This document shows positions 8,344 to 20,973 of a stretch of DNA of 22,263 nt, one piece after another. The DNA is from an uncultured archaeon (lineage in GTDB: Archaea > Asgardarchaeota > Lokiarchaeia > Sigyniarchaeales > SOKP01): assembly GCA_964388035.1 (NCBI GenBank), contig CAYLZE010000085.1, forward strand, positions 1 to 22,263. The letters run 5' to 3'. The translations under genes were made by a program, and so were the position numbers. Position 1 is the stretch's first letter. Each line of letters begins with the position of its first letter. A model generated the notes under the pieces. The model saw only the letters and a list, made by a program, of their open reading frames with translations, ran no database searches and was not told the origin of the DNA.

Positions 8344-10026
8344 TTAAATAAAAACTATAGTTTTCTGGATGTATTCTAAATAATGATTAATTTCTTTTTT
8401 TTTAGTATCTTCTGACCAAGAATACTCTCGAGCCATAATATCACCTACTACTTTTGTTGCTTGCTCTTGCTCTCTATGATCAATGAAAATGGCCATTTCA
8501 GTGCGCCTACAAAATACATCAATTAAATGAAGGGTTAACTCATGTTTTAAAGTGTAGAAAATTTCCGCTTTTATAAAATAATAATTATCAAGTATTTTTT
8601 CAGCAAGGGGGGGATCTTGCTTAATGAGCTCTAAAATTTTCAAAGCACCTCTTCCATATTGTTGATAAAGATGATCAGAAATCTTTTGCTCTAAATTAAT
8701 CCCACTTTTCTCGAGATTATTAACCCAATCCTCTTTATCAAGGGAAATGATGAATCTTTGTTTAGAAAAATTGCTCTCTCTATGAATATCGGAAAAAATA
8801 TTCGCTTTTTCAATTTCAAGAAGAAGATCTTCAGCCATGGCTCTCCATTCGGTTAACTTTCCGCCTGCAATAGTAAGGAGTCCATCATCAGAAAAAAATA
8901 TGATATGTTTTCGCGATATATCACTTTCAGATTTTCCTTTTTGCATTACTAAGGGACGTACTCCCGCATAAGTAGATAAGATGTTTTCATAGCTCAATTC
9001 TGCTTTGGGAAAGTAATATTTTACCGAGTTAATCAAATAATCTGCATCTTCTTTATTACAATAAGGATTGTCCAAATCACCCGAATAATCAGTATCGGTC
9101 GTTCCTATTATGGTAAATTCACCTTCCCGGGGCAATACAAAAAATGATCTATCATCTGTTCTTGAGCGGATTATCGTGGCCATTCTGTTTTTCACATGTT
9201 TTGTACGAAATTGAACGTGTACTCCTTTTGTAGGTCGAATTAATGGTTTTGGAATATCATCAGGATAACTTTCTAGTAATTTATCAGTCCATATCCCTGT
9301 TGCGTTGACAACTAATGTTCCTTTTATACGTAATTCTCGATTCTTTTCTAAATCCTTACATACCACCCCCACGATTTTTCCATTTGCTTTAATGTATTCT
9401 TCAACCTGACAATAATTAACAGCATCCGTACCCCGTATTACTGCTTCTTTTAAGGTTTCTAAGGTTAATCTTGCGTCATCCACGTTGTTATCGTAATACA
9501 CGGCACCCCCTTTATTACCTTCTTGAATGTACTCGGGCTCCATCTGATGAATTTCTTCTGCAGAATACCATTTATACTTTTTGAAGTTTTTGAATTCTTG
9601 ATCAGTATCGCTTAGAAAATCGTATATTTTACAAGCGCCTATGATATCTCTTTTTTTATACTTGTCCCCTTCTAATTCGACAAACAAGAAGGGTATGGGA
9701 CGAATCAAATTAGGAATTGCATAGCGCATCCAATTTCTTTCTGTACTAGCTGTTTTAACCAAATCCATGTCTCCATGAGATAAATATCTAATACCACCAT
9801 GTGCTAATTTCGAACTTCGAGAAGAGGTACCTCCCGCAAAATCTTGTTTTTCCAAAAGGGCGACTTTAAGGTTTCTCATTGCGGCCTCCCGAGCAACACC
9901 CGCTCCCGTAATTCCCCCTCCAATTATGATTATATCATAATTCATAGTTTGGAGTCTCTCAAATATTTTTTCTCTTGAATGGCAATTCCAAGATAATGAA
10001 AATAATTTATCTACTAATTCGCTCAT
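8344..10026 (-). CDS. glpD: FAD-dependent glycerol-3-phosphate dehydrogenase/oxidase (GlpD family)
   Basis: IIIGGGITGAG FAD motif, DFAGGTSSRSSKLAHGGIRYL, DDARL, VVNATGIWTD, PTKGVH, IGTTDTDY, YAGVRPL, GGKLT and C-terminal DVFCRRT. Confidence 0.95.
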   Translation of the reverse strand: MSELVDKLFSLSWNCHSREKIFERLQTMNYDIIIIGGGITGAGVAREAAMRNLKVALLEKQDFAGGTSSRSSKLAHGGIRYLSHGDMDLVKTASTERNWMRYAIPNLIRPIPFLFVELEGDKYKKRDIIGACKIYDFLSDTDQEFKNFKKYKWYSAEEIHQMEPEYIQEGNKGGAVYYDNNVDDARLTLETLKEAVIRGTDAVNYCQVEEYIKANGKIVGVVCKDLEKNRELRIKGTLVVNATGIWTDKLLESYPDDIPKPLIRPTKGVHVQFRTKHVKNRMATIIRSRTDDRSFFVLPREGEFTIIGTTDTDYSGDLDNPYCNKEDADYLINSVKYYFPKAELSYENILSTYAGVRPLVMQKGKSESDISRKHIIFFSDDGLLTIAGGKLTEWRAMAEDLLLEIEKANIFSDIHRESNFSKQRFIISLDKEDWVNNLEKSGINLEQKISDHLYQQYGRGALKILELIKQDPPLAEKILDNYYFIKAEIFYTLKHELTLHLIDVFCRRTEMAIFIDHREQEQATKVVGDIMAREYSWSEDTKKKEINHYLEYIQKTIVFI

Positions 10027-10126: not shown

Positions 10127-10936
10127 TTACACTGCAGTTAAAAATTTCCGGGTAGATAATCTAATTCCAATATACGCAAAAAATAAGGAAGTCAGGAATG
10201 CAAAGGGGAGATTTGCAATTATGATATAGGCGAATAAGGGTTCTGCCGAATAAAAATATAGGGTAATGACAACAATTACCAAAATGATAGAGCTTCCATA
10301 AGCGGGTTTCTGGTTTCCAATTAGAAAACCTAAAATAAAATTCGGAAGTATAAAAATGATTAATACGTTAGAGATGGCTAAAAATACTAGTGATGGCATG
10401 AAAATGGTAAAAATTTCGGTTTGACTAAATAATAATTGATTTAATTGAAAATAATTATAAAGAAATTGAGTGGCAATAATACTAACTAATAATAAGAAAT
10501 ATGACATCGGAGCTACAATTAACCATGATAATCCCATTCTTTTTCCGAATGAGGGTTGGACTTTTCCTTTTAAATTATTCATTACTAATATATTCATGAG
10601 AGTAGTATCTATTCTCTCTTTTTCATAATACGGAGAATACTCATCTATAAAATCCAACAAAATGTTTCTTAATACTTGATTAAGAAGAATATTATTATCA
10701 TTTGCATTTGCCACCATTGCACCTAATAAACATTCACGGGACATGGGCAATATAATTAATTTTTTATTTTCACCTAAATCAAGATGTTTTATTACACGAT
10801 TCAAAGCTTCTCGGCTGAAGTGCGTGATGGATGATAAAAATCCAACTAATAAATTAGTATCAAAACTAGTGCTGGTTAAGTTCTTTTCGTATAATAAAAC
10901 GCCATTTTCATTTATTATATATACACTATCTATCAA
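10127..10936 (-). CDS. Longin-like domain fused to ~4 C-terminal TM helices
   Basis: N-terminal MIDSVYIINENGVLLYEK (beta-beta), helix LLVGFLSSITHFSRE, three strands and helix LNQVLRNILLDFIDEY match the longin-fold pattern. Residues ~134-260 are hydrophobic. TTG start. Confidence 0.75.
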   Translation of the reverse strand: MIDSVYIINENGVLLYEKNLTSTSFDTNLLVGFLSSITHFSREALNRVIKHLDLGENKKLIILPMSRECLLGAMVANANDNNILLNQVLRNILLDFIDEYSPYYEKERIDTTLMNILVMNNLKGKVQPSFGKRMGLSWLIVAPMSYFLLLVSIIATQFLYNYFQLNQLLFSQTEIFTIFMPSLVFLAISNVLIIFILPNFILGFLIGNQKPAYGSSIILVIVVITLYFYSAEPLFAYIIIANLPFAFLTSLFFAYIGIRLSTRKFLTAV

Positions 10937-10981: not shown

Positions 10982-12763
10982 TTATTTGCCAATTGATTTT
11001 AAATTTTGGTGAATATATTCTAAATAATCGTCAAGATCAGCATTAAGTCTTTTAAAACTGTATAAATTTTGTCCAAATATTTGTATGAGTAATATTAACA
11101 AATCATCGGGATTCATTTGGGTATAGATTTTATACCGTTCATTCTTTCGATCCTCTATTATCACTAAAGATTCAAAGGTTCTTAATTTATTAATTTCTTC
11201 GGGATTAGGATTATTTAACTCAATTAAAACTAATTCTCCAGATTGAGGTAATTTTGCTCTATATTCTTCAATTGACCTAGTTTCAGTTGCCTTTTCAGTT
11301 ATAATAAGAATTTCATCGCATTCTGAAACAATTTCTTCTGGTCCATACAAAATGAATATCATGTGGAAAGATTTTTTGATATTTTTAATAAATTCATTGA
11401 ATTTGGCATACTCCATTCTATTTAAAAAATCGGGGGGTATTCTAAAAATAATTAAAGTAGAATATTGCAATAATGCTCTTGCGACGGAAAAGATCATGTA
11501 TTCTAATGAAGTTAACTCCTTTACTTTTACGTCCTTTTTAAGGATTAACCCCGTTACTTTTAAAATAATAGAGAGATTATCTCTTTTTTCCTTCCAATTC
11601 CTCAATATCCTATATAATTGAATTCTTTTTTCAAATTCTTCATAAATTTCATCTTTTAATTGATATAGTCCCGCATGCTTTATTGCATCTGTCAAAGCAA
11701 CTCGACGCTCCTTAAAGGGATTTGCAACTTGAATTCCCTTTTTTATCGCTCTTGCTAAAGTTAAATTTTCGGTTTTTTCATCAACTCTTGCGGGTAAAAT
11801 GAAAATTCTTTTTTTTTCTTGTTCTGAAAGTAATTGTACATGTTTTCCAAAAACCTTAATTGTTCCATTAAAATCCTCTTGTGAACCCCCTAAAGCTCTC
11901 ATTAATTTTAATAATTCTAAATTAAAAATATGTTCACTAATTTGGGTTGAATCATAATATATTCCTAATGATTCTCCCCTATGAACTTTGAAATTTAAAT
12001 TTTTAATCTTATCTGAAAGCATTATATCTTCCATGATTAAATGTTGAGAATCTTTAAAAAAACCCGATATATTAAGGCGATCAAGAATAACCTTAATTAA
12101 ACTATTCACAATTTCAGTAACATGTAAGGGGTGATTTTCATCCCATTTTTTGATGTTTTCTGTTTTTAAAAATTCATTTAATTTGATAATTCTGGATAAT
12201 GTAAGTGAAAATGTGATTTTTGGCAATAGAGGATAATTTTCAAAATTTATTTTAAGTTTCAATAAAAAGTGGGGAAAATACACCCAAATTTCTCTATTAT
12301 AAGGATTATTTTCAACGCTATAATTTTCATAATCTTCATTTAATAACGTGACTTCTTGTTCTAATACAGATAAATGGAAGCGATATTCGCTATTTATAGT
12401 TTTACTTAATCGATTAATAATTTTTAAAGGACTAACTAATCCATCATCATCAAAGTCAGGATTAAGGATTATTTGATTAATGTCGATTTCCGTTTCAATG
12501 GGAGTATATATTTTTAAGAGAGGCATGCCCTTATCCAATACATCCCTATTTGTAAAAAAAAGAACCTCTACATAACTTTTCTTATAAATCAAATTTAAAA
12601 TGGTAGATATACCAAATGTTCCTTCTTTATAAATCATCCAATACTTTCGTGAGACACGAATAGCTTCTAAGATCTTTTTTTGAATTGTATTTAATTCAAT
12701 TTGACGTTTGCTAATTGCTTCACCGTTATCATTCCTTACTTCTTTTTCTTTACTCATCGACAT
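10982..12763 (-). CDS. RWD/UBC-like domain fused to a degenerate (inactive) ABC ATPase
   Basis: aa ~135-226: EQEVTLLNEDY...KINFENYPLLPKITF...WDENHPLHVTEIVNSL. The ABC scaffold is visible (NLNFKVHRGESLGI, GTIKVFG, SVARALL, CDEILII), but Walker A, signature, Walker B and H-loop are all replaced. Confidence 0.72.
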   Translation of the reverse strand: MSMSKEKEVRNDNGEAISKRQIELNTIQKKILEAIRVSRKYWMIYKEGTFGISTILNLIYKKSYVEVLFFTNRDVLDKGMPLLKIYTPIETEIDINQIILNPDFDDDGLVSPLKIINRLSKTINSEYRFHLSVLEQEVTLLNEDYENYSVENNPYNREIWVYFPHFLLKLKINFENYPLLPKITFSLTLSRIIKLNEFLKTENIKKWDENHPLHVTEIVNSLIKVILDRLNISGFFKDSQHLIMEDIMLSDKIKNLNFKVHRGESLGIYYDSTQISEHIFNLELLKLMRALGGSQEDFNGTIKVFGKHVQLLSEQEKKRIFILPARVDEKTENLTLARAIKKGIQVANPFKERRVALTDAIKHAGLYQLKDEIYEEFEKRIQLYRILRNWKEKRDNLSIILKVTGLILKKDVKVKELTSLEYMIFSVARALLQYSTLIIFRIPPDFLNRMEYAKFNEFIKNIKKSFHMIFILYGPEEIVSECDEILIITEKATETRSIEEYRAKLPQSGELVLIELNNPNPEEINKLRTFESLVIIEDRKNERYKIYTQMNPDDLLILLIQIFGQNLYSFKRLNADLDDYLEYIHQNLKSIGK

Positions 12764-12771
12764 TTAATATT

Positions 12772-15700
12772 CTATTCCTCAATTTCAATTGTTCTATATC
12801 TAAAATATTCTTCCATTCGCGATTCTGATTGTGTAATTTTTTTCAGAACACCCTCACTAAAAATAGGTTTTATTTTTTCCTCAACTTGATTTAGAGTCAG
12901 ATCAGTAAAGATGGAATAATCAGTTCCGGCTTTGTCTTCTAAAGCTTTAGCTATGCCCTCAATATTATTCAGTTTCTCTAAAGCATTTTGTTGAATTTGC
13001 TTAAATGTCAATTGAATAGTCCTGCCTTTTCCCGGAAGTTGATCAAGGAGATCTTTAGGATCACCATAATCTATCAGACCTCTATATCTTCCAAAAATAG
13101 CAACTTTATCGCAAAATCTAGACTCTTCGGGATAATGAGTTATTATAATCAATGTGGTATTAAATTGCTCATTAATACGTGTTAAAGAGTGCCATAAGTT
13201 TTCTCTCACAATCGGATCGAGGCCTGAGGTGGGCTCATCCATCCAAACAATGATAGGTTCGTGAATAAGGGAGACTGCTATTGAAACACGACGCTTTTGA
13301 CCTCCTGAAAGATTTTTTACGAGCTCATTCATTTTATCTTCAATTTCAAGGGTTCTTAAAATTCTCCTTGCTCTTCTTCTAATTTCTTTTTCAGGAATTC
13401 CATATTGATTCCCAAAATATAATAGATTTTGGAGCGTAGTAAAATTCTGATAAATTTTAGATATATCTTGAGGACAGTATCCATAAATAGGACGAATTTT
13501 TTTTGCATACTTTCTCACATCCATCCCATAAATTTGTGATATACCTGTTGTTTTTCTCATTCCTAGTAATCCCTTGACAAATGTACTCTTTCCCGCTCCG
13601 CTTTCTCCTAAAACACCAAGAATTTCCCCATGAGTTAAACGCAATGAAACAGAATCAACAATTAATTTTCCTCCGGCATATATACTTAAATTTTCACAAT
13701 TAATGGCGGGAAATCTTTTTAAATATTCAATATTTAACTTGTCCCTTATATTTAAGATGGATTTTAGCCTTTCTGTTATATCAAAGTATGATAAAAAACT
13801 TAGAAATCCAATTATCCAGATAATCACAATTTCTGCAGCTAAAACAGAAAGTAATAATTGGTTCCAAGGGGTGGGATCAAAAGAGTGATCATATTTAAAA
13901 TTATTAATAATGATAATTCCAAAGGGACAGTTTCTTAAATCCCCGCCAAAATTTGGAACATCCCCCAATCCTCCCGTCTTTTTGCTGATGCAATTTAAGA
14001 ACCAAGTTAATAGAGTAGCCATATTTTCAGGTTGATATCGATAATCATACAATGCCTTGGATGCAAAATATGTAATAATAAAGTAGGAGATGCTAATTCC
14101 CGTAAATGTTGAAAGATCAGGTATAAGATTAAAACCACCATCTTCTAATTGGGCTAATTTTAAGAATTCTATTGAGGAAATCTTGGATAGAGGTTCTTCT
14201 TGAATTAATATTAATAATTCCAATCCATAATAAGTGGAAGTCACATCACTCTGAAATCCTAAAAATAATGGAAAACCTCCATCGGCACTTTGGCAAGATT
14301 TAATCCAGTTAGATAGAGATGTCATATTTATTTTATTGACTGCATCCAATATACTCAAAGCTGAATAGGCCCAATAGGTTGTTTCTACAGTCGAAATGTT
14401 GGTATTAACCAAATCTAATATGATGTAATAATAAGATCCAAAAAATTGGGAAAGGTATTCTGTATCATTACCTGCCTTAAACCCGCCGTCCGGATTCTGT
14501 AATTGAATTAAATAAATTTGCGTGGCTGTTCTATTTGGAAGCTCTATTTTTTCATAATCAAAAAAAATTTCATATAATTCCATGGCACAATAAGTAGAAA
14601 AGGTACTGGAATTCATTCCGGGGTGAGAACCAAAACCACCATCTCGAAGATTATAACAATCTTCCACGAACTTCCAAGTATTGTTAATATTAATTAAATT
14701 AGGTAATCCCGTGGAATTTCCTTCATATACGGCTAATGTACCCAAATAATTAGACTCAATAGTTATATCTCCAAATAAACCATTCGTAGCTTGATGGTCA
14801 TATAACCAAGAATAATAATTTAGTCTCACCTGATTGATTCGTTCTTTATAAACATCATCAAGCTGTGAGTTTTGTTCAAATAAGGTGATTGTATTCATAG
14901 CGGCCCATCCAGCTTTGAATGTTGAAGGATATTTATTTCCCTGTCTCACCCCAAATCCCCCATCCGTATTGTTACAATTCAAGACATAATCAAGTGTTTG
15001 AAATCTTTGCAATGGTGTAGATCCTATTTTATAGAGAGAAGATACACTGTAATAAGTTGATTTGACATCTGAATCTCCCCCAATTTCCATCGAATAACCT
15101 CCATCTAGCCGAGAATAACGAAGAAGATTGAAAAACGCAATTATTAATCCTTCATCAATTAAACTATAAGTTTGATTTAATTCTAAAAATGCCTTGATTC
15201 CATAATATGTACTTTCTGAAGTAGGAGATATCGTTGTATTGGTATAAGAATATCCTCCGAGATAAAAAGTTGAATTTATGTACGTTGAAAGATTCTGTTT
15301 AGAGATTATAGCTGGAAGCGAAAATTGTTCCGCCAATTTTATTCCACAATAGGTTGAAATGATATCAGAATCATTTAAAGAGGGATTCAATTTAAATCCA
15401 TACCCATGAGATTCTTGACTATTTTTTAGATATTGAATAATTTTATCAATTTTTCCTTCATCTATTTCGGGATCCAAGAATGATTTACCCATTTCATCTA
15501 TAGTAGCTACAACTTCATAGGTTGAAAAAAGATTACCTAATCCGTAAACATCAGAAAACGAACCATCATCATTTTGTTTTTCGAATAAATAATGAAAGAA
15601 AAAATATTTTTCATCTTCTTTTAATAAGGTATTTGAGCGGGGATCTATCAATTTGGATAGAATAAATTGATTACTTGAAAAGTTAATAGAGTTAATTGCG

Positions 15701-15957
15701 CTGTAAGTCGAATCAATATCCACTTCAATGAATAATCCCGATGAGGGATTTTTATGTGTTAGAGAAAAATATAACATTTCATCTTTAAGGTCATTAACTT
15801 GTTCTGTGGTAAAATATTGCTTATAAGGAGTATTAATTATCAATAATAGAAATAAAGGGGCGCTTAATACCACGGAGATAATTATGATTGTTCTTATTAT
15901 TCGTTTCGTTTTATAATTTATATTATCCCACCTCCTCTTTCCATTTGGTATTCCCAT
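12772..15957 (-). CDS. Membrane-anchored prenyltransferase/squalene-cyclase-repeat ectodomain fused to an ABC ATPase
   Basis: N-terminal TM, 12 Q-x-x-DGGF...STY-type repeats, second TM (~13857-13786), then GESGAGKS, GYCPQ, LSGGQ, VWMDEPTSGLD, ITH. The true start may be ATA at 15921. Confidence 0.88.
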   Translation of the reverse strand: MGIPNGKRRWDNINYKTKRIIRTIIIISVVLSAPLFLLLIINTPYKQYFTTEQVNDLKDEMLYFSLTHKNPSSGLFIEVDIDSTYSAINSINFSSNQFILSKLIDPRSNTLLKEDEKYFFFHYLFEKQNDDGSFSDVYGLGNLFSTYEVVATIDEMGKSFLDPEIDEGKIDKIIQYLKNSQESHGYGFKLNPSLNDSDIISTYCGIKLAEQFSLPAIISKQNLSTYINSTFYLGGYSYTNTTISPTSESTYYGIKAFLELNQTYSLIDEGLIIAFFNLLRYSRLDGGYSMEIGGDSDVKSTYYSVSSLYKIGSTPLQRFQTLDYVLNCNNTDGGFGVRQGNKYPSTFKAGWAAMNTITLFEQNSQLDDVYKERINQVRLNYYSWLYDHQATNGLFGDITIESNYLGTLAVYEGNSTGLPNLININNTWKFVEDCYNLRDGGFGSHPGMNSSTFSTYCAMELYEIFFDYEKIELPNRTATQIYLIQLQNPDGGFKAGNDTEYLSQFFGSYYYIILDLVNTNISTVETTYWAYSALSILDAVNKINMTSLSNWIKSCQSADGGFPLFLGFQSDVTSTYYGLELLILIQEEPLSKISSIEFLKLAQLEDGGFNLIPDLSTFTGISISYFIITYFASKALYDYRYQPENMATLLTWFLNCISKKTGGLGDVPNFGGDLRNCPFGIIIINNFKYDHSFDPTPWNQLLLSVLAAEIVIIWIIGFLSFLSYFDITERLKSILNIRDKLNIEYLKRFPAINCENLSIYAGGKLIVDSVSLRLTHGEILGVLGESGAGKSTFVKGLLGMRKTTGISQIYGMDVRKYAKKIRPIYGYCPQDISKIYQNFTTLQNLLYFGNQYGIPEKEIRRRARRILRTLEIEDKMNELVKNLSGGQKRRVSIAVSLIHEPIIVWMDEPTSGLDPIVRENLWHSLTRINEQFNTTLIIITHYPEESRFCDKVAIFGRYRGLIDYGDPKDLLDQLPGKGRTIQLTFKQIQQNALEKLNNIEGIAKALEDKAGTDYSIFTDLTLNQVEEKIKPIFSEGVLKKITQSESRMEEYFRYRTIEIEE

Positions 15958-16931
15958 TCTTTTTTTTCCTTTTCTTCCTCCTCTTGAATCCGTATTTGAA
16001 AGTATCTTCGGAAAGTTGCTCCATCCTTATTAAGTGACTTAATTTTAACATCGTTTTTTATAAGATAATCAACCAATTTTGGAAGCTCATCATCAAAATT
16101 ATTTAAAAAAACTTCCACTACTTCATTCCCTACTCTAATTATTTTATCCACGGGGTAATTCTTAAATATATTGATCTTAACTTGATTTAATTCATCGATG
16201 GTAAACCTAGCTAATTTACCTCCACTTGGAAGTGTAGATATTAATACTTGTGGATCCTCAAACTCCAATACTCTCCCTTCTCTTAGTATTGCTGCTTTAT
16301 CGCAAATTAAGGAGCATTCCATGTCATGAGATATAATGAACATGGTCGTTCCTAAATTCTGATTAAGTTTCTTTAGGTAGCTTAAAATATCATACCTCTT
16401 ACTTGCATCCACTCCCGTGGTGGGTTCATCTAGAAATAAAATTTCAGGTTCATGTATGAGACCTATTGCTATGGAGACTCTCTTCTTTTCTCCGCCACTC
16501 ATGTTATTTAAGGGTTTTTTCCACGTATCTTCAGGAATATCTAATATTTGAAAAAGATCGCTTGCTATTTTTTTTGATTTTTCTGTCTTCATGCCATAAG
16601 TTGATGCAAAAGTTTCAATATTAGCAAGCGGTTTTAAATCATAATAAAGATTGAGTTCTTCCAGCTGAGGAACATATCCTATGGAAGATAATATCTCTGG
16701 ATGATTGCGTCTTTTTGCCGGAGATAACCCCATTACTTGAATATTTCCACTCCAATGTTTCTTATTAAGCTGGCATGTAATTGCCCGAATGATTGTAGTT
16801 TTACCTGCTCCCGATATCCCGAAATATCCTATAATTTCACCTTTTTTTACCGAAAATGACACATCATGGATGATGTGCTTCTTTCCAAATTTCACATTTA
16901 AATTTTCCACTTCAATTACTATATCATTCAC
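15918..16931 (-). CDS. ABC transporter ATP-binding protein (ABC-2/DrrA-CcmA-like) with C-terminal regulatory domain
   Basis: GISGAGKT, GYVPQ, MSGGE, FLDEPTTGVD, ISH. GTG start preceded by gagga. Confidence 0.93.
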   Translation of the reverse strand: MNDIVIEVENLNVKFGKKHIIHDVSFSVKKGEIIGYFGISGAGKTTIIRAITCQLNKKHWSGNIQVMGLSPAKRRNHPEILSSIGYVPQLEELNLYYDLKPLANIETFASTYGMKTEKSKKIASDLFQILDIPEDTWKKPLNNMSGGEKKRVSIAIGLIHEPEILFLDEPTTGVDASKRYDILSYLKKLNQNLGTTMFIISHDMECSLICDKAAILREGRVLEFEDPQVLISTLPSGGKLARFTIDELNQVKINIFKNYPVDKIIRVGNEVVEVFLNNFDDELPKLVDYLIKNDVKIKSLNKDGATFRRYFQIRIQEEEEKEKKEWEYQMERGGGII

Positions 16932-17035: not shown

Positions 17036-18175
17036 TTAGACCTCATAATCCTTTAGATAAAATATTATGAAACTAAGCGCGATGAATAATGCACTTATTC
17101 CTAATAAGCAATAAAAATCAAATCCAATCACAGATTTCCCTTTTGTCACGATCCCCATGATGAGGGGCTTTCCATGAGATAGAGGTAGCATGTATGCTAC
17201 AGCTTGCAGATATCTGGGCATTGCATCAATCGGAATAAAGATTCCGCTTAAGATAACGATTAAAATATAAAAAGCGAACATTAGCTGATTTGCTTCTGTC
17301 TTAGTGTTGCTGGTACAACTGATAAAGATTCCTATGGATAAACCTGAAAATCCGATCATAAATAATGCAATGAATAAATCGAGTGATGACCCTACTATGT
17401 AAAGTCCACCCAAAATACTCGAAATCATTAGGATTATAACTTGCAAAAACAAAATAGAAGAATAGGTAATAAATTTTGAACAAAGAATTTCATATTTATT
17501 GAGGGGAGTAAGTAAAAGTCGAGCTATGGGATGTTCCCTAACAACGACTAATATCGTAAGGACCAGACTTATTCCAAAAATTATCATGGGAAGCAATAAG
17601 GTAATAGCATTATTAAATTGAAAATTATAATTTGGAGGAATTGCAAATTCTTGATATCCAGCAATTTTAAATTGCGGTTTGAGATTATTATCTTTCACAA
17701 ATATATCTATGGAGTCTTGAACAGCATTGAGATAATCTTGAATTTTATCTATATTTGATGCATCGGGAACGCATTGAATTACAGCAGGATAACCCCAAGA
17801 TATCATCTCTGAAAAATCTAAGGGGATAACAATAATAACACTAACATTTCCTGCAAGTAGTTCATTTTGGGCTTCTTCCATGGCATAAATATCTTTAGAA
17901 GCATTATAAAATTTAACTAATTCCAATTTTTGGGATTTATTTACCGCATTCAAATAAGGAATCGTATAATTATCTATCTTATATTCTGTATAATCATTAG
18001 GATTGAGAAAGGAATTAGAATCATAAGAAATTACAATGGTCTTAACTGGAATGGGATTTTCAGCGGATTGCATCGAAATATACGCAAAAAGCGTGACGAT
18101 GAGAGGTGGGAGCGCTAATGCAATGAATAAGTTATAAGGATCTGTCCGTAATAGTCTAAATTCCTTTTTTATCAT
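17036..18175 (-). CDS. ABC-2 type permease with extracellular domain (YbhR/YbhS-like)
   Basis: KEFRLLRTD, TM1, ~150 aa ectodomain (VIIVIPLDFS, DASN), then 5 TM with LSGIFIPIDAMP...YMLPLSHG. The reading frame stays open upstream to 18265, so the real start is probably earlier (ATT 18259). Confidence 0.92.
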   Translation of the reverse strand: MIKKEFRLLRTDPYNLFIALALPPLIVTLFAYISMQSAENPIPVKTIVISYDSNSFLNPNDYTEYKIDNYTIPYLNAVNKSQKLELVKFYNASKDIYAMEEAQNELLAGNVSVIIVIPLDFSEMISWGYPAVIQCVPDASNIDKIQDYLNAVQDSIDIFVKDNNLKPQFKIAGYQEFAIPPNYNFQFNNAITLLLPMIIFGISLVLTILVVVREHPIARLLLTPLNKYEILCSKFITYSSILFLQVIILMISSILGGLYIVGSSLDLFIALFMIGFSGLSIGIFISCTSNTKTEANQLMFAFYILIVILSGIFIPIDAMPRYLQAVAYMLPLSHGKPLIMGIVTKGKSVIGFDFYCLLGISALFIALSFIIFYLKDYEV

Positions 18176-18265: not shown

Positions 18266-19420
18266 TCACACTTCCACCTTCTTTAATTTGAATATGAGAT
18301 AAGCAAGAAAGAGAAACACCAAACTAATTAAATTTAAAGAAATAAAATGCTGGAGAGTGATCGATAACCCTTTTAAAGTGATTTCGACTAATAACGGAAT
18401 GGCGTGACCCAAGGGTAAACTATTAATTAATATTTGTAAGGCGGGAGATAAAGAAGAAGTATCAACAAAAGTTCCTGAAAGAAGGAGCATTGTTATAAAA
18501 AACATGATATAAAGTTGGTTTGCGGTTTGCTCTGATGGACTGATTGCAGAGATGAACAACCCTATGCACACGCCACTGAACCCGATGGCAACCAATACGA
18601 TATAAAGTTCAAAGAGTGAACCTAGAGAATACAACCCAAATAGCGCAATAGTTACAAATATTTCCGCAGATTGCAAAAGCATGATTAAACTATTCGCGAC
18701 CAATTTACTAATTATGATTTCATTTTTTGCCGTGGGTGTTAGCAACATCCTGGGGAGGGGTCCTTCAGATACGATTGACAGCGAGGTGAGATTCATGGTA
18801 GTACCAATAATAATGAGAGGTAACATGATAGAAACTGCATAATTTAATATTTGGGGTTCCCAAAAAGGCACGTCATATTCCAGATAGGGGTTCATGACGA
18901 CCATATTTTTTGTCATTCCTACTTTTGCTCGAAACAGCGCTATGGGTTCTTGTAATGATACTTCAATGGCTGCAACAGCATTCAGCTCCGAACCATCCAC
19001 ATAATAAATTATAACGGGATCTACTCCCTTAATAACGGACTCTGAAAAATTTGTCGGTAAAATAATGAATACATCAATTGTCTCTTGCCGTAATAATTCA
19101 ATATATCGATTAAAAGTATATTCATATCCCGTAATATTCCGGGCTATGTATGATTCATAAAGACCAAAAGAGGTGGTGTTATCGCGCATGATGGAGATAA
19201 AATCATTTTCATATGCATGGGAATCTTTTCTAAAGCCTCTCCAACAGTGCATTTCATCTTTACTAATAATAGCTGCATTGAAAAATTTTGTTGGACCTCC
19301 TCCAGAAGTCAGTCCAAAAATAATTATCAAGATTAAGGGAATAATGAATATCATGACTAAAGTTCTTCTATCTGACCTAATCCGACCAAATTCCTTAAAG
19401 ATTAATCCACGTATATTCAA
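18266..19420 (-). CDS. ABC-2 type permease with extracellular domain (paralogue of 17036..18175)
   Basis: KEFGRIRSDRRT, TM1, ectodomain (FIILPTNFS, VDGS), LLSGTFV...SLPLGHA. TTG start preceded by aggag. Confidence 0.92.
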   Translation of the reverse strand: MNIRGLIFKEFGRIRSDRRTLVMIFIIPLILIIIFGLTSGGGPTKFFNAAIISKDEMHCWRGFRKDSHAYENDFISIMRDNTTSFGLYESYIARNITGYEYTFNRYIELLRQETIDVFIILPTNFSESVIKGVDPVIIYYVDGSELNAVAAIEVSLQEPIALFRAKVGMTKNMVVMNPYLEYDVPFWEPQILNYAVSIMLPLIIIGTTMNLTSLSIVSEGPLPRMLLTPTAKNEIIISKLVANSLIMLLQSAEIFVTIALFGLYSLGSLFELYIVLVAIGFSGVCIGLFISAISPSEQTANQLYIMFFITMLLLSGTFVDTSSLSPALQILINSLPLGHAIPLLVEITLKGLSITLQHFISLNLISLVFLFLAYLIFKLKKVEV

Positions 19421-19530: not shown

Positions 19531-20973
19531 CTAGGAAAGATAGGTGTTTTGATACCAATCTTTTAGATTTTTGAAACGAGAAGACTTGAATGTAGTGAGG
19601 AGGTGATTTTTCGCATCCTTTTTTATTTTTTCGAATAATGCTTCACAAATTTTTGGATTATCTTGACTAATGTCTTTGCTCCATGTCGGGTCTCTAGTGA
19701 GATCATACAATTTTTGAAAAGATCGATCGTTTGCTGTTATTAGGGCATAATGATCATCCTTATAAAGTGTCCAAAGACTCATGCCACATGTGATGTAATC
19801 TCTGCCCTCGAGTTCATGATCCTGTTCATCAACAAATCGAGAAAGGTCTAAACCATCCAAATTATTTGGTCTTTCTTTGCCAAGAAACCCAAGAATTGTA
19901 GGCAAGATATCGTGAACATACACGTGACTTTTGGTTATTTTTTTAGGTCCCTTTATACCTCCAGGGGGTTTGATCATTAGAGGAATATCCACTAATTCGG
20001 GATAAAGATGGGTAGGGATTTTTCCTATCGCACTATGTTCTCCTAAACTGTGTCCATGATCACTCAATAGAATAATTAATGATTCTTCATAAATTTCCAA
20101 TTCTTTTAACTTCTCAATAAAATGACCAAACCAAGCATCGCACAAAGATACTTCTCCAGAATAGCATGCCCGCATGCATTTTAATTCTTCCCTTGACATG
20201 TATGTTAAAGATTCTCCATAAATGGGTAGAATAATCCTATTACCTCGATATGCTTTATCTAAATAGAGCTGAAGATATTGTTGCGGAGGATCCCAGGGTT
20301 CATGGGGATCAAACTCATCTATTAATAAGAAAATGTTGCTATAATTCTTTAAAATATCAAGGGTTTCGATAGCTTTTTGAAATGTTTTAGCGGGAAAATA
20401 ATTTTTCTCCTCTTTCCGATATTGCACGTTAGCAAAATAGCGACTTAATAATAATTTTTGCAATTGGACTTGAGCTTTATTTTCTTTCGTTTTATTTACT
20501 AAAAATTTACGTATATAGCTATTGATCTCACGCTTATCTCCTTTTAATCTTGCATGGTATTTATCAAACTCTTGTCCCCGAATAGCATGCCATTCATCAA
20601 ACCCTAAATGAAAATTCATGTTGGGTTTAAATTGATGATAAGTGCTTGTAATAAATGAGGTAATATATCCCAATCGAGTAAGGTATTCTGACAAATGTTT
20701 TTGATTGGAAGGAATGGGTGTCCAACCAGGGGACTCTACCATATCATCCGTTCTTAAGAAAGAAACATCTTGATTAAAGGGGAATGTTCTAATTCCCGTA
20801 TGAACGGCGCGGCGCACGGGTATGGTAGGCAAAGATTCAGGATACGCTTTTTCGAATACAATAGAATCATTAGCAAAAGCGTCGAAATGGGGAGTGTGTA
20901 TTTGATCATTCCCATAAATTTTGCCTACATGATCCTTTCTTAATGTATCAAATATTATCAAAAAGATTTTCAT
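19531..20973 (-). CDS. Sulfatase-like alkaline-phosphatase-superfamily hydrolase (Thr at nucleophile position)
   Basis: IIFDTLRKDH, TPHFD, PTIPVRRAVHTG (position of CxPxRxxxxTG), DPHEPW, LSDHG, PLMIK, LYDLTRDP. No signal peptide. Confidence 0.9.
   Translation of the reverse strand: MKIFLIIFDTLRKDHVGKIYGNDQIHTPHFDAFANDSIVFEKAYPESLPTIPVRRAVHTGIRTFPFNQDVSFLRTDDMVESPGWTPIPSNQKHLSEYLTRLGYITSFITSTYHQFKPNMNFHLGFDEWHAIRGQEFDKYHARLKGDKREINSYIRKFLVNKTKENKAQVQLQKLLLSRYFANVQYRKEEKNYFPAKTFQKAIETLDILKNYSNIFLLIDEFDPHEPWDPPQQYLQLYLDKAYRGNRIILPIYGESLTYMSREELKCMRACYSGEVSLCDAWFGHFIEKLKELEIYEESLIILLSDHGHSLGEHSAIGKIPTHLYPELVDIPLMIKPPGGIKGPKKITKSHVYVHDILPTILGFLGKERPNNLDGLDLSRFVDEQDHELEGRDYITCGMSLWTLYKDDHYALITANDRSFQKLYDLTRDPTWSKDISQDNPKICEALFEKIKKDAKNHLLTTFKSSRFKNLKDWYQNTYLS

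Follow-up and report, generated by a model that had tools for sequence, protein, structure and literature searches.

In a 22,263-nucleotide stretch of DNA from an Asgard archaeon (hereafter the window) we identified an uninterrupted open reading frame (ORF) of 1061 amino acids (P0001; positions 12772-15957, reverse strand), in which the nucleotide-binding domain (NBD) of an ATP-binding cassette (ABC) transporter is joined through a hairpin of two transmembrane (TM) helices to a large domain formed by two prenyltransferase-like toroids that are predicted to lie outside the cell. We conclude that P0001 and its associated genes represent a real, conserved and Asgard-restricted variant of the type V (ABC-2) ABC exporters with an NBD-tethered extracellular double toroid. 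ABC ATPase subunits are nearly always soluble cytoplasmic motors, and the unusual feature here is that a TM hairpin joins the NBD covalently to an ectodomain; the motor, the permeases and the toroid are each ordinary parts.

The earlier note on this DNA had described the product as a basic N-terminus, a first TM helix, about 650 residues of repeats, a second TM helix and an intact NBD. Profile searches against Pfam, hydropathy, AlphaFold2 (AF2) modeling and the catalytic motifs all agree with this layout and place 659 residues in the ectodomain. Its parts, all encoded on the reverse strand, are as follows:

12772-15957 (-), whole ORF: TM1, double-toroid ectodomain, TM2, ABC NBD and C-terminal domain; full-length AF2 model with a predicted local distance difference test score (pLDDT) of 88.5.
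15835-15957 (-), residues 1-41: cytoplasmic N-terminus of basic character (net +6), followed at 23-41 by TM1 or a signal anchor, from hydropathy and AF2.
14833-15834 (-), residues 42-375: ectodomain barrel 1, six Prenyltrans-type repeats, from Pfam, AF2 and fold matches.
13858-14832 (-), residues 376-700: ectodomain barrel 2, six repeats, from AF2, self-comparison and conservation.
13783-13857 (-), residues 701-725: TM2, from hydropathy and AF2.
13708-13782 (-), residues 726-750: cytoplasmic linker between TM2 and the NBD, of low confidence in AF2 (pLDDT <50 at 727-740).
13033-13707 (-), residues 751-975: ABC NBD of the ABC-2/DrrA type, from Pfam, NCBIfam, motifs and structure matches.
12775-13032 (-), residues 976-1061: alpha/beta domain at the C-terminus, resembling that of TM_1403 (4yer) and NosF, from AF2 and Foldseek.

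In Pfam, P0001 matches the Prenyltrans family (PF00432) in four stretches (E-value 1e-36; 127 bits, cut-off 26.5) and ABC_tran (PF00005) across residues 768-911 (E-value 1.4e-24; 87.7 bits, cut-off 25). A hydropathy scan recovered just two TM segments (23-41 and 701-719), and in the full-length AF2 model these correspond to two long helices (15-41 and 696-725). As the NBD must be cytoplasmic, the presence of two TM segments and an N-terminus with a net charge of +6 would place the 659 residues between them outside the cell, as previously claimed; this placement, which we consider well founded, is further supported by the signal peptides and C-terminal anchors of the unfused relatives described below. 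The N-X-S/T sequons that had been marshaled for the same claim were correctly counted at about 14 (14 in the ectodomain, with 4 more in the NBD region), but they do not serve as evidence of topology: across the whole family the ratio of observed sequons to those expected from composition is 1.67 in the ectodomain versus 2.26 in the NBD. Conserved N-x-S/T triplets are also found inside cytoplasmic motifs, for instance at N882 of the ABC signature, and we accordingly set the sequons aside in assigning the outer face. N-glycosylation at N-X-S/T does exist in a cultured Asgard archaeon, where it is found chiefly on one solute-binding protein (PMC11284389).

Structure searches with the full-length model were dominated by matches to the NBD, and we therefore folded the ectodomain separately. 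The resulting AF2 model, built with 42 aligned sequences, is of high confidence (pLDDT 92.9, predicted TM-score 0.91) and displays 12 helical-hairpin repeats forming two alpha/alpha toroids. Homology between the two halves (26% identity, E-value 5e-12) indicates that the ectodomain is a duplicated six-repeat toroid; together with the model and the fold matches this bears out the double barrel that had been postulated from the repeats. Each barrel is nearest to the beta subunits of the protein prenyltransferases, with VIA Z-scores of 27.4 and 27.2 (root mean square deviation 2.9 Å over 274-284 residues) and target-normalized Foldseek TM-scores of 0.69-0.73. Weaker matches were obtained to terpene cyclases (Z 18-20), six-hairpin glycosidases and epimerases (about 18) and thioester (TED) domains (about 16). 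Superposition of the pair of barrels on the squalene-hopene and oxidosqualene cyclase structures 1sqc, 1gsz and 1w6k, made with a view to the beta-gamma arrangement of two barrels about a single cavity, was poor (deviations of 8-12 Å and TM-scores of 0.41-0.43), with the caveat that the relative placement of the two domains in the AF2 model is uncertain. On the predicted structure and the sequence alike, the ectodomain belongs with the prenyltransferase/terpene-cyclase superfamily rather than with the glycosidases.

The NBD retains the full complement of ABC catalytic motifs, namely a Walker A motif (GESGAGKST, 784-792), the Q-loop (Q830), the signature (LSGGQ, 883-887), Walker B with the catalytic glutamate (D907-E908), the D-loop and the H-loop (H941). 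In an alignment of 39 homologs every one of these motifs is invariant, in line with the intact motif set reported before, and by this motif set the NBD qualifies as a catalytically competent ABC ATPase. Its best matches among the NCBIfam models are DrrA, RbbA, NodI and GldA, all of them below the family cut-offs (DrrA 174.9 against 312.45, GldA 107.7 against 402.6, NodI 131 against 521), which indicates that it is related to, but not an equivalog of, any named system. At the structural level, Foldseek comparisons with the full-length model showed that the NBD and the C-terminal domain together match Thermotoga maritima TM_1403 (4yer; TM-score 0.84-0.85) and NosF of the NosDFY complex (7o0y_B; TM-score 0.74).

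Since a surface-protein gene and an NBD gene could have been wrongly joined during assembly or annotation, we examined the distribution of the fusion. A word-indexed search of NCBI, JGI, ENA and Logan recovered 107 fused clusters at 90% identity, with lengths of about 1000-1090 residues, and the fusion was found in 38 of 301 sampled genomes of the phylum, 34 of these being among the 68 from the family to which the window itself belongs. In all 38 it is present in a single copy and without internal stops, and the junction, formed by TM2 and the linker, aligns throughout the homologs. With the same continuous ORF shared by over 100 clusters of four independent origins, a chimeric assembly, raised by the earlier note as a potential objection, is excluded, and we regard an artefact of any such kind as a negligible prospect. 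When the permeases were used for the search the count for the family became 45 of 71, with some of the apparent absences falling at contig ends. The named fused clusters all come from Asgard lineages (Promethearchaeota/Loki, Hod, Hermod, Thor and Hel) except for one labeled Candidatus Deferrimicrobia (P0104). We do not accept the latter as a bacterial occurrence: its contig (L009) shares synteny with one from a Helarchaeota genome (L004) and has genes for eIF-1A and for a radical SAM protein of the ELP3-like kind, and the label is most likely a binning error. Many of the database gene calls for the homologs begin inside or after TM1, so that public models of the family are often N-terminally truncated; in one such case (P0054; L040:1381-1620) the upstream frame still encodes TM1 and the basic stretch, with TTG as the probable start codon. 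A search of the literature on the fusion, or on extracellular prenyltransferase-like domains in Asgard archaea, uncovered no paper on this protein family, so that the possibility of the architecture having already been characterized, which had also been raised, finds no published counterpart.

We then examined the gene neighborhood of the fusion, which is part of a cassette of six genes. The further members of the cassette in the window are:

15918-16931 (-): stand-alone second NBD of 337 residues with intact motifs, from Pfam, NCBIfam and alignment.
17036-18175 (-): ABC-2 permease of 379 residues, with TM1, an extracellular loop of about 155 residues and TM2-6, from Pfam and hydropathy.
18266-19420 (-): second ABC-2 permease, 384 residues, a paralog of the first (about 34% identity), from Pfam and hydropathy.
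10982-12763 (-): soluble protein of 593 residues, conserved in the cassette, its C-terminal half a degenerate NBD by alignment.
10127-10936 (-): protein of 269 residues with four TM helices toward its C-terminus; its gene is the last in the cassette to be conserved, from hydropathy and synteny.

The permeases and the stand-alone NBD are encoded upstream of the fusion and the 593- and 269-residue proteins downstream of it. Both permeases match PF12698 (ABC2_membrane_3; E-values 6e-29 and 8e-23) and each has an extracellular loop of about 155 residues. The start of the fusion ORF overlaps the 3' end of the upstream NBD gene by 40 nucleotides (15918-15957 of the window), an arrangement that fits translational coupling of two ATPase subunits. 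The presence of two different permeases and two different intact NBDs points to a complete heterotetrameric type V ABC transporter, of which the fusion would be one motor. The C-terminal half of the 593-residue protein aligns to both NBDs and lacks Walker A, the signature and Walker B; by this alignment it is a pseudo-ATPase, conserved in the cassette, whose first 330 or so residues match no family. Look-ups of this protein and the 269-residue protein in the ESM Atlas returned just unnamed Asgard clusters and generic ABC fragments.

The six genes are found in identical order in Loki-type and Thor contigs. Across 30 loci from the taxonomic family of the window, the permease pair is present in all, with the fusion just downstream wherever checked. 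In the Hel-type loci the cassette is reordered, with the pseudo-NBD on the opposite strand and the permeases after the fusion. There (L004:14604-17552; L009:15711-18557) it is followed by a MacB_PCD/FtsX permease, a protein of 262-268 residues and another NBD, and these extra genes together have the appearance of another ABC system, one of the mechanotransmission type. The cassette in the window is flanked by genes for a GlpA/GlpD-type FAD glycerol-3-phosphate dehydrogenase (8344-10026, reverse strand) and a sulfatase-family protein (19531-20973, reverse strand). The flanking genes vary between loci, and the dehydrogenase and sulfatase neighbors are not kept in the other loci examined.

We propose that a heterotetrameric type V (ABC-2) exporter is formed in which P0001 would be one of two ATPases, and that the TM hairpin on its NBD would hold the double toroid on the cell exterior, next to the loops that the permeases expose there. 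With two unlike permeases and two unlike NBDs, there would be exactly one copy of the toroid-bearing chain per transporter. The toroids might then receive what the pump extrudes, acting as a tethered module outside the cell that binds the cargo of the exporter or hands it off, a reading whose chances we regard as evenly balanced. Given that this fold binds isoprenoid chains and peptides in the prenyltransferases, the cargo would probably be amphipathic, for instance an isoprenoid-bearing lipid or lipid-linked glycan, or else a peptide or surface polymer. We infer an assembly with the products of the neighboring genes, an exporter direction and a ligand of this general kind. Several observations weigh against the proposal. 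No gene of the cassette or of its variable flanks points to a cargo, and the toroid fold is by itself no proof of isoprenoid binding, as this superfold also binds peptides, proteins and sugars. The pseudo-NBD and the four-TM subunits are left unaccounted for by a simple exporter model. Further, the system is patchily distributed, some half of the genomes in its own family having it, which shows it to be accessory rather than core. In a more specific version, the double toroid would be the extracellular acceptor of an isoprenoid lipid, such as an archaeal membrane lipid or a polyprenyl- or dolichyl-phosphate-linked glycan, that is extracted by the ABC-2 pump. We consider this version rather unlikely; if true, it would represent an Asgard-specific machine for lipid extraction and hand-off, like ABCA1/apoA-I or Lpt/Lol, and would bear on the movement of lipids beyond a single membrane in the archaeal relatives of eukaryotes.

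The same PF00432 repeats and the same (alpha/alpha)6 fold are shared by the barrels of P0001 and the beta subunits of the protein prenyltransferases (RabGGTase, GGTase-I and FTase), from which P0001 differs in having two barrels per chain, located outside the cell and devoid of the Zn site. We looked for the active sites known from this fold across the 39 aligned sequences. The DxDD motif was found in one of the 39, the QW motif and the CGEQ thioester motif in none, and neither a DDxxD motif nor a conserved Asp/Cys/His triad was detected. The only conserved His of the ectodomain is H68, and conserved Cys are seen only at the structural xxC position in the outer helices. In HMMER alignments to RabGGTase beta the positions of the Zn ligands are occupied by Lys, Ser, Thr or Asn, and the Asp/Cys/His Zn site of the prenyltransferases, which lies where the inner helices of repeats 5 and 6 begin, was not found in the ectodomain, with the register in both cases set by eye. 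Likewise, the PPTA alpha subunit (PF01239) has no match in the genome of the window, which is 96.7% complete. We accordingly rejected three known identities for the ectodomain: that of a class II terpene cyclase (SHC/OSC), for want of DxDD (1/39) and QW; that of a TED domain, for want of CGEQ in the 39 sequences and with a fold Z-score of only about 16; and that of a protein prenyltransferase beta subunit, where the fold and repeats fit and the Zn site and PPTA partner are missing. The combined absence of Zn ligands, DxDD, QW and thioester motifs suggests that the ectodomain is a binding module or scaffold and none of these known enzymes.

Conservation across the family is unevenly distributed, with a mean column identity of 0.71 in the NBD, 0.41-0.45 in the ectodomain and 0.27-0.31 in the TM helices, which are the least conserved parts. 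These values show purifying selection on the ectodomain. Its best-kept stretch is the last repeat and the juxtamembrane segment adjoining the membrane (residues 661-700, mean identity 0.59), with invariant D666, F670, G671, N676 and W698 and near-invariant D673, L674 and R675. The first of the alternatives to the hand-off module that these residues bring up is an extracellular enzyme, for instance one modifying glycans or lipids, with a new active site on the toroid and placed beside an exporter that supplies its substrate. The invariant polar cluster D666, D673, R675 and N676 closes barrel 2, and N676 falls at the place of the Zn-binding His in the sixth repeat of RabGGTase beta, when judged by repeat register (by eye, without superposition); moreover, six-hairpin glycosidases, epimerases and phosphorylases have the same fold (Z 15-18). 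Nevertheless, both sequence and structure lead to the prenyltransferase/terpene-cyclase superfamily, whose catalytic signatures are all missing, and no cofactor or metal site is evident, such that we consider an enzymatic role distinctly improbable.

The same juxtamembrane segment has a bearing on a second alternative, namely that nothing is transported and that the ATP-driven closure of the NBDs is relayed via TM2 and the permeases, with the toroids extracting, releasing or remodeling a molecule bound at the cell surface. NosDFY, FtsEX, LolCDE and MacB work by such mechanotransmission. Here, the ectodomain is covalently attached to the moving NBD and not to a permease, NosF is among the closest structural matches of the motor (TM-score 0.74), the best-conserved ectodomain stretch lies beside TM2, TM2 itself has a conserved buried Glu, and a MacB/FtsX-type system stands beside the cassette in the Hel-type loci. 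On the other hand, the linker is long and of low confidence (726-750; pLDDT <50 at 727-740) and thus ill suited to act as a rigid lever, conservation is at its lowest in the TM helices (0.27-0.31), and the permeases are of the ordinary ABC-2 exporter type. We therefore treat mechanotransmission as unlikely, though it is the chief competitor to the hand-off module. The buried Glu in question is E709 in the middle of TM2 (13831-13833 of the window), which is kept in 95% of the 39 homologs in a helix with little conservation otherwise; possible partners for it are another helix or the head group of a lipid.

The faster evolution of the ectodomain relative to the motor, as is often seen in receptors, and the two extra conserved non-catalytic subunits in the cassette are also consistent with a receptor or sensor, in which the toroids would bind an environmental or surface ligand and gate the ATPase, and the pseudo-NBD and the four-TM protein would provide a cytoplasmic regulatory output comparable to that of BceAB. 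However, no kinase, transcription factor or other signaling output is conserved beside the cassette, whose flanks vary, and two complete permeases with two active NBDs suit a working pump. Hence, we view a sensory function as quite improbable, and retain the tethered binding or hand-off module as the preferred reading.

Comparison with known transporters helps delineate what is distinctive about this architecture. In having an NBD with a C-terminal domain P0001 resembles the type V exporters TM_1403, NosF and ABCA (NBD and R domain), but their NBDs all lack an ectodomain borne on a TM hairpin at the N-terminus. The earlier note had drawn an analogy to the ABCA half transporters, in which TM helices likewise bracket a large extracellular part, with an NBD and then a C-terminal domain after it; in sequence, too, ABCA NBDs rank with the best matches of P0001 in the PDB, although their high scores sum two NBDs per chain. 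This analogy turned out to be a loose one, as P0001 has two TM helices and no transmembrane domain of its own, and the arrangement of TM1, extracellular domain and TM2-6 belongs instead to the two neighboring permease genes. Furthermore, the ABCA extracellular domain is not among the fold matches of the ectodomain. The closest precedent of which we are aware is Bacillus subtilis TagGH, an exporter of the lipid-linked wall teichoic acid, in which the NBD of TagH continues into a TM helix and then an extracellular domain. It is thus a type V exporter ATPase that is itself anchored in the membrane and bears an extracytoplasmic domain; in TagH this additional part is C-terminal, has one TM helix and a different fold, whereas in P0001 it is N-terminal, has two TM helices and is a double toroid.

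The likely origin of the fusion can be gleaned from its unfused relatives, which we collected by an exhaustive search of 1.84 billion representatives. The nearest relatives outside the fusion clade lack the NBD (E-values 1e-31 to 1e-14; for example P0109 from Odin, P0110 from Woesearchaeota and P0139) and nearly all of them are proteins of 740-990 residues with a signal peptide, Prenyltrans repeats, one C-terminal TM helix and a basic tail. This arrangement is the usual one for surface-anchored proteins of archaea. It had been taken as established that such barrels are cytoplasmic; the closest unfused relatives, being surface-anchored, speak against this premise, as do at least two more proteins in the same genome as the window. 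One of these is a 1315-residue protein with a signal peptide and Prenyltrans repeats (contig C42, L047:3643-7590) and the other a 1605-residue protein with a signal peptide, Prenyltrans repeats, SBBP beta-propeller repeats and a C-terminal anchor (contig C40, L048:2667-7484); both are probably surface proteins. The layout of the unfused relatives suggests that the toroids descend from this family of surface proteins and that the fusion arose when a gene of this kind was joined to a downstream NBD gene, with the signal peptide becoming TM1. A weak match to the N-terminal domain of Ribophorin II (PF05817) was seen only among the unfused relatives, as in P0110 and P0135 (E-value 7e-6 in P0135), where it overlaps the Prenyltrans repeats, and P0001 has no match to this family at an E-value of 0.01 or better. 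We do not assign these proteins to it, and the matches may reflect only a shared helical repeat.

The gene neighborhoods of the unfused relatives are of a different kind. In all three loci considered, from Odin, Woesearchaeota and one metagenome contig (L006:7001-14607, L007:7001-12360 and L008:7001-12632), the toroid gene has no ABC-2 transporter beside it, and immediately after it come a gene combining 7TM_transglut with ATPgrasp_ST and a Transglut_core gene. In the Odin locus the 7TM/ATP-grasp protein itself bears Prenyltrans repeats.

Thus, in P0001 the ABC motor is itself threaded through the membrane and bears on the outside a 70-kDa domain of a ligand-binding type. If the toroids do receive or act on the cargo, this would be a novel means by which an ABC pump is linked to chemistry outside the cell, in a host lineage that comprises the archaea closest to eukaryotes and in which the cell surface and the handling of lipids are little known. 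More generally, the prenyltransferase toroid emerges as a widespread extracellular module of archaea that has been repeatedly paired with membrane machines using cytoplasmic ATP, namely an ABC NBD in the fusion and an ATP-grasp in its unfused relatives.

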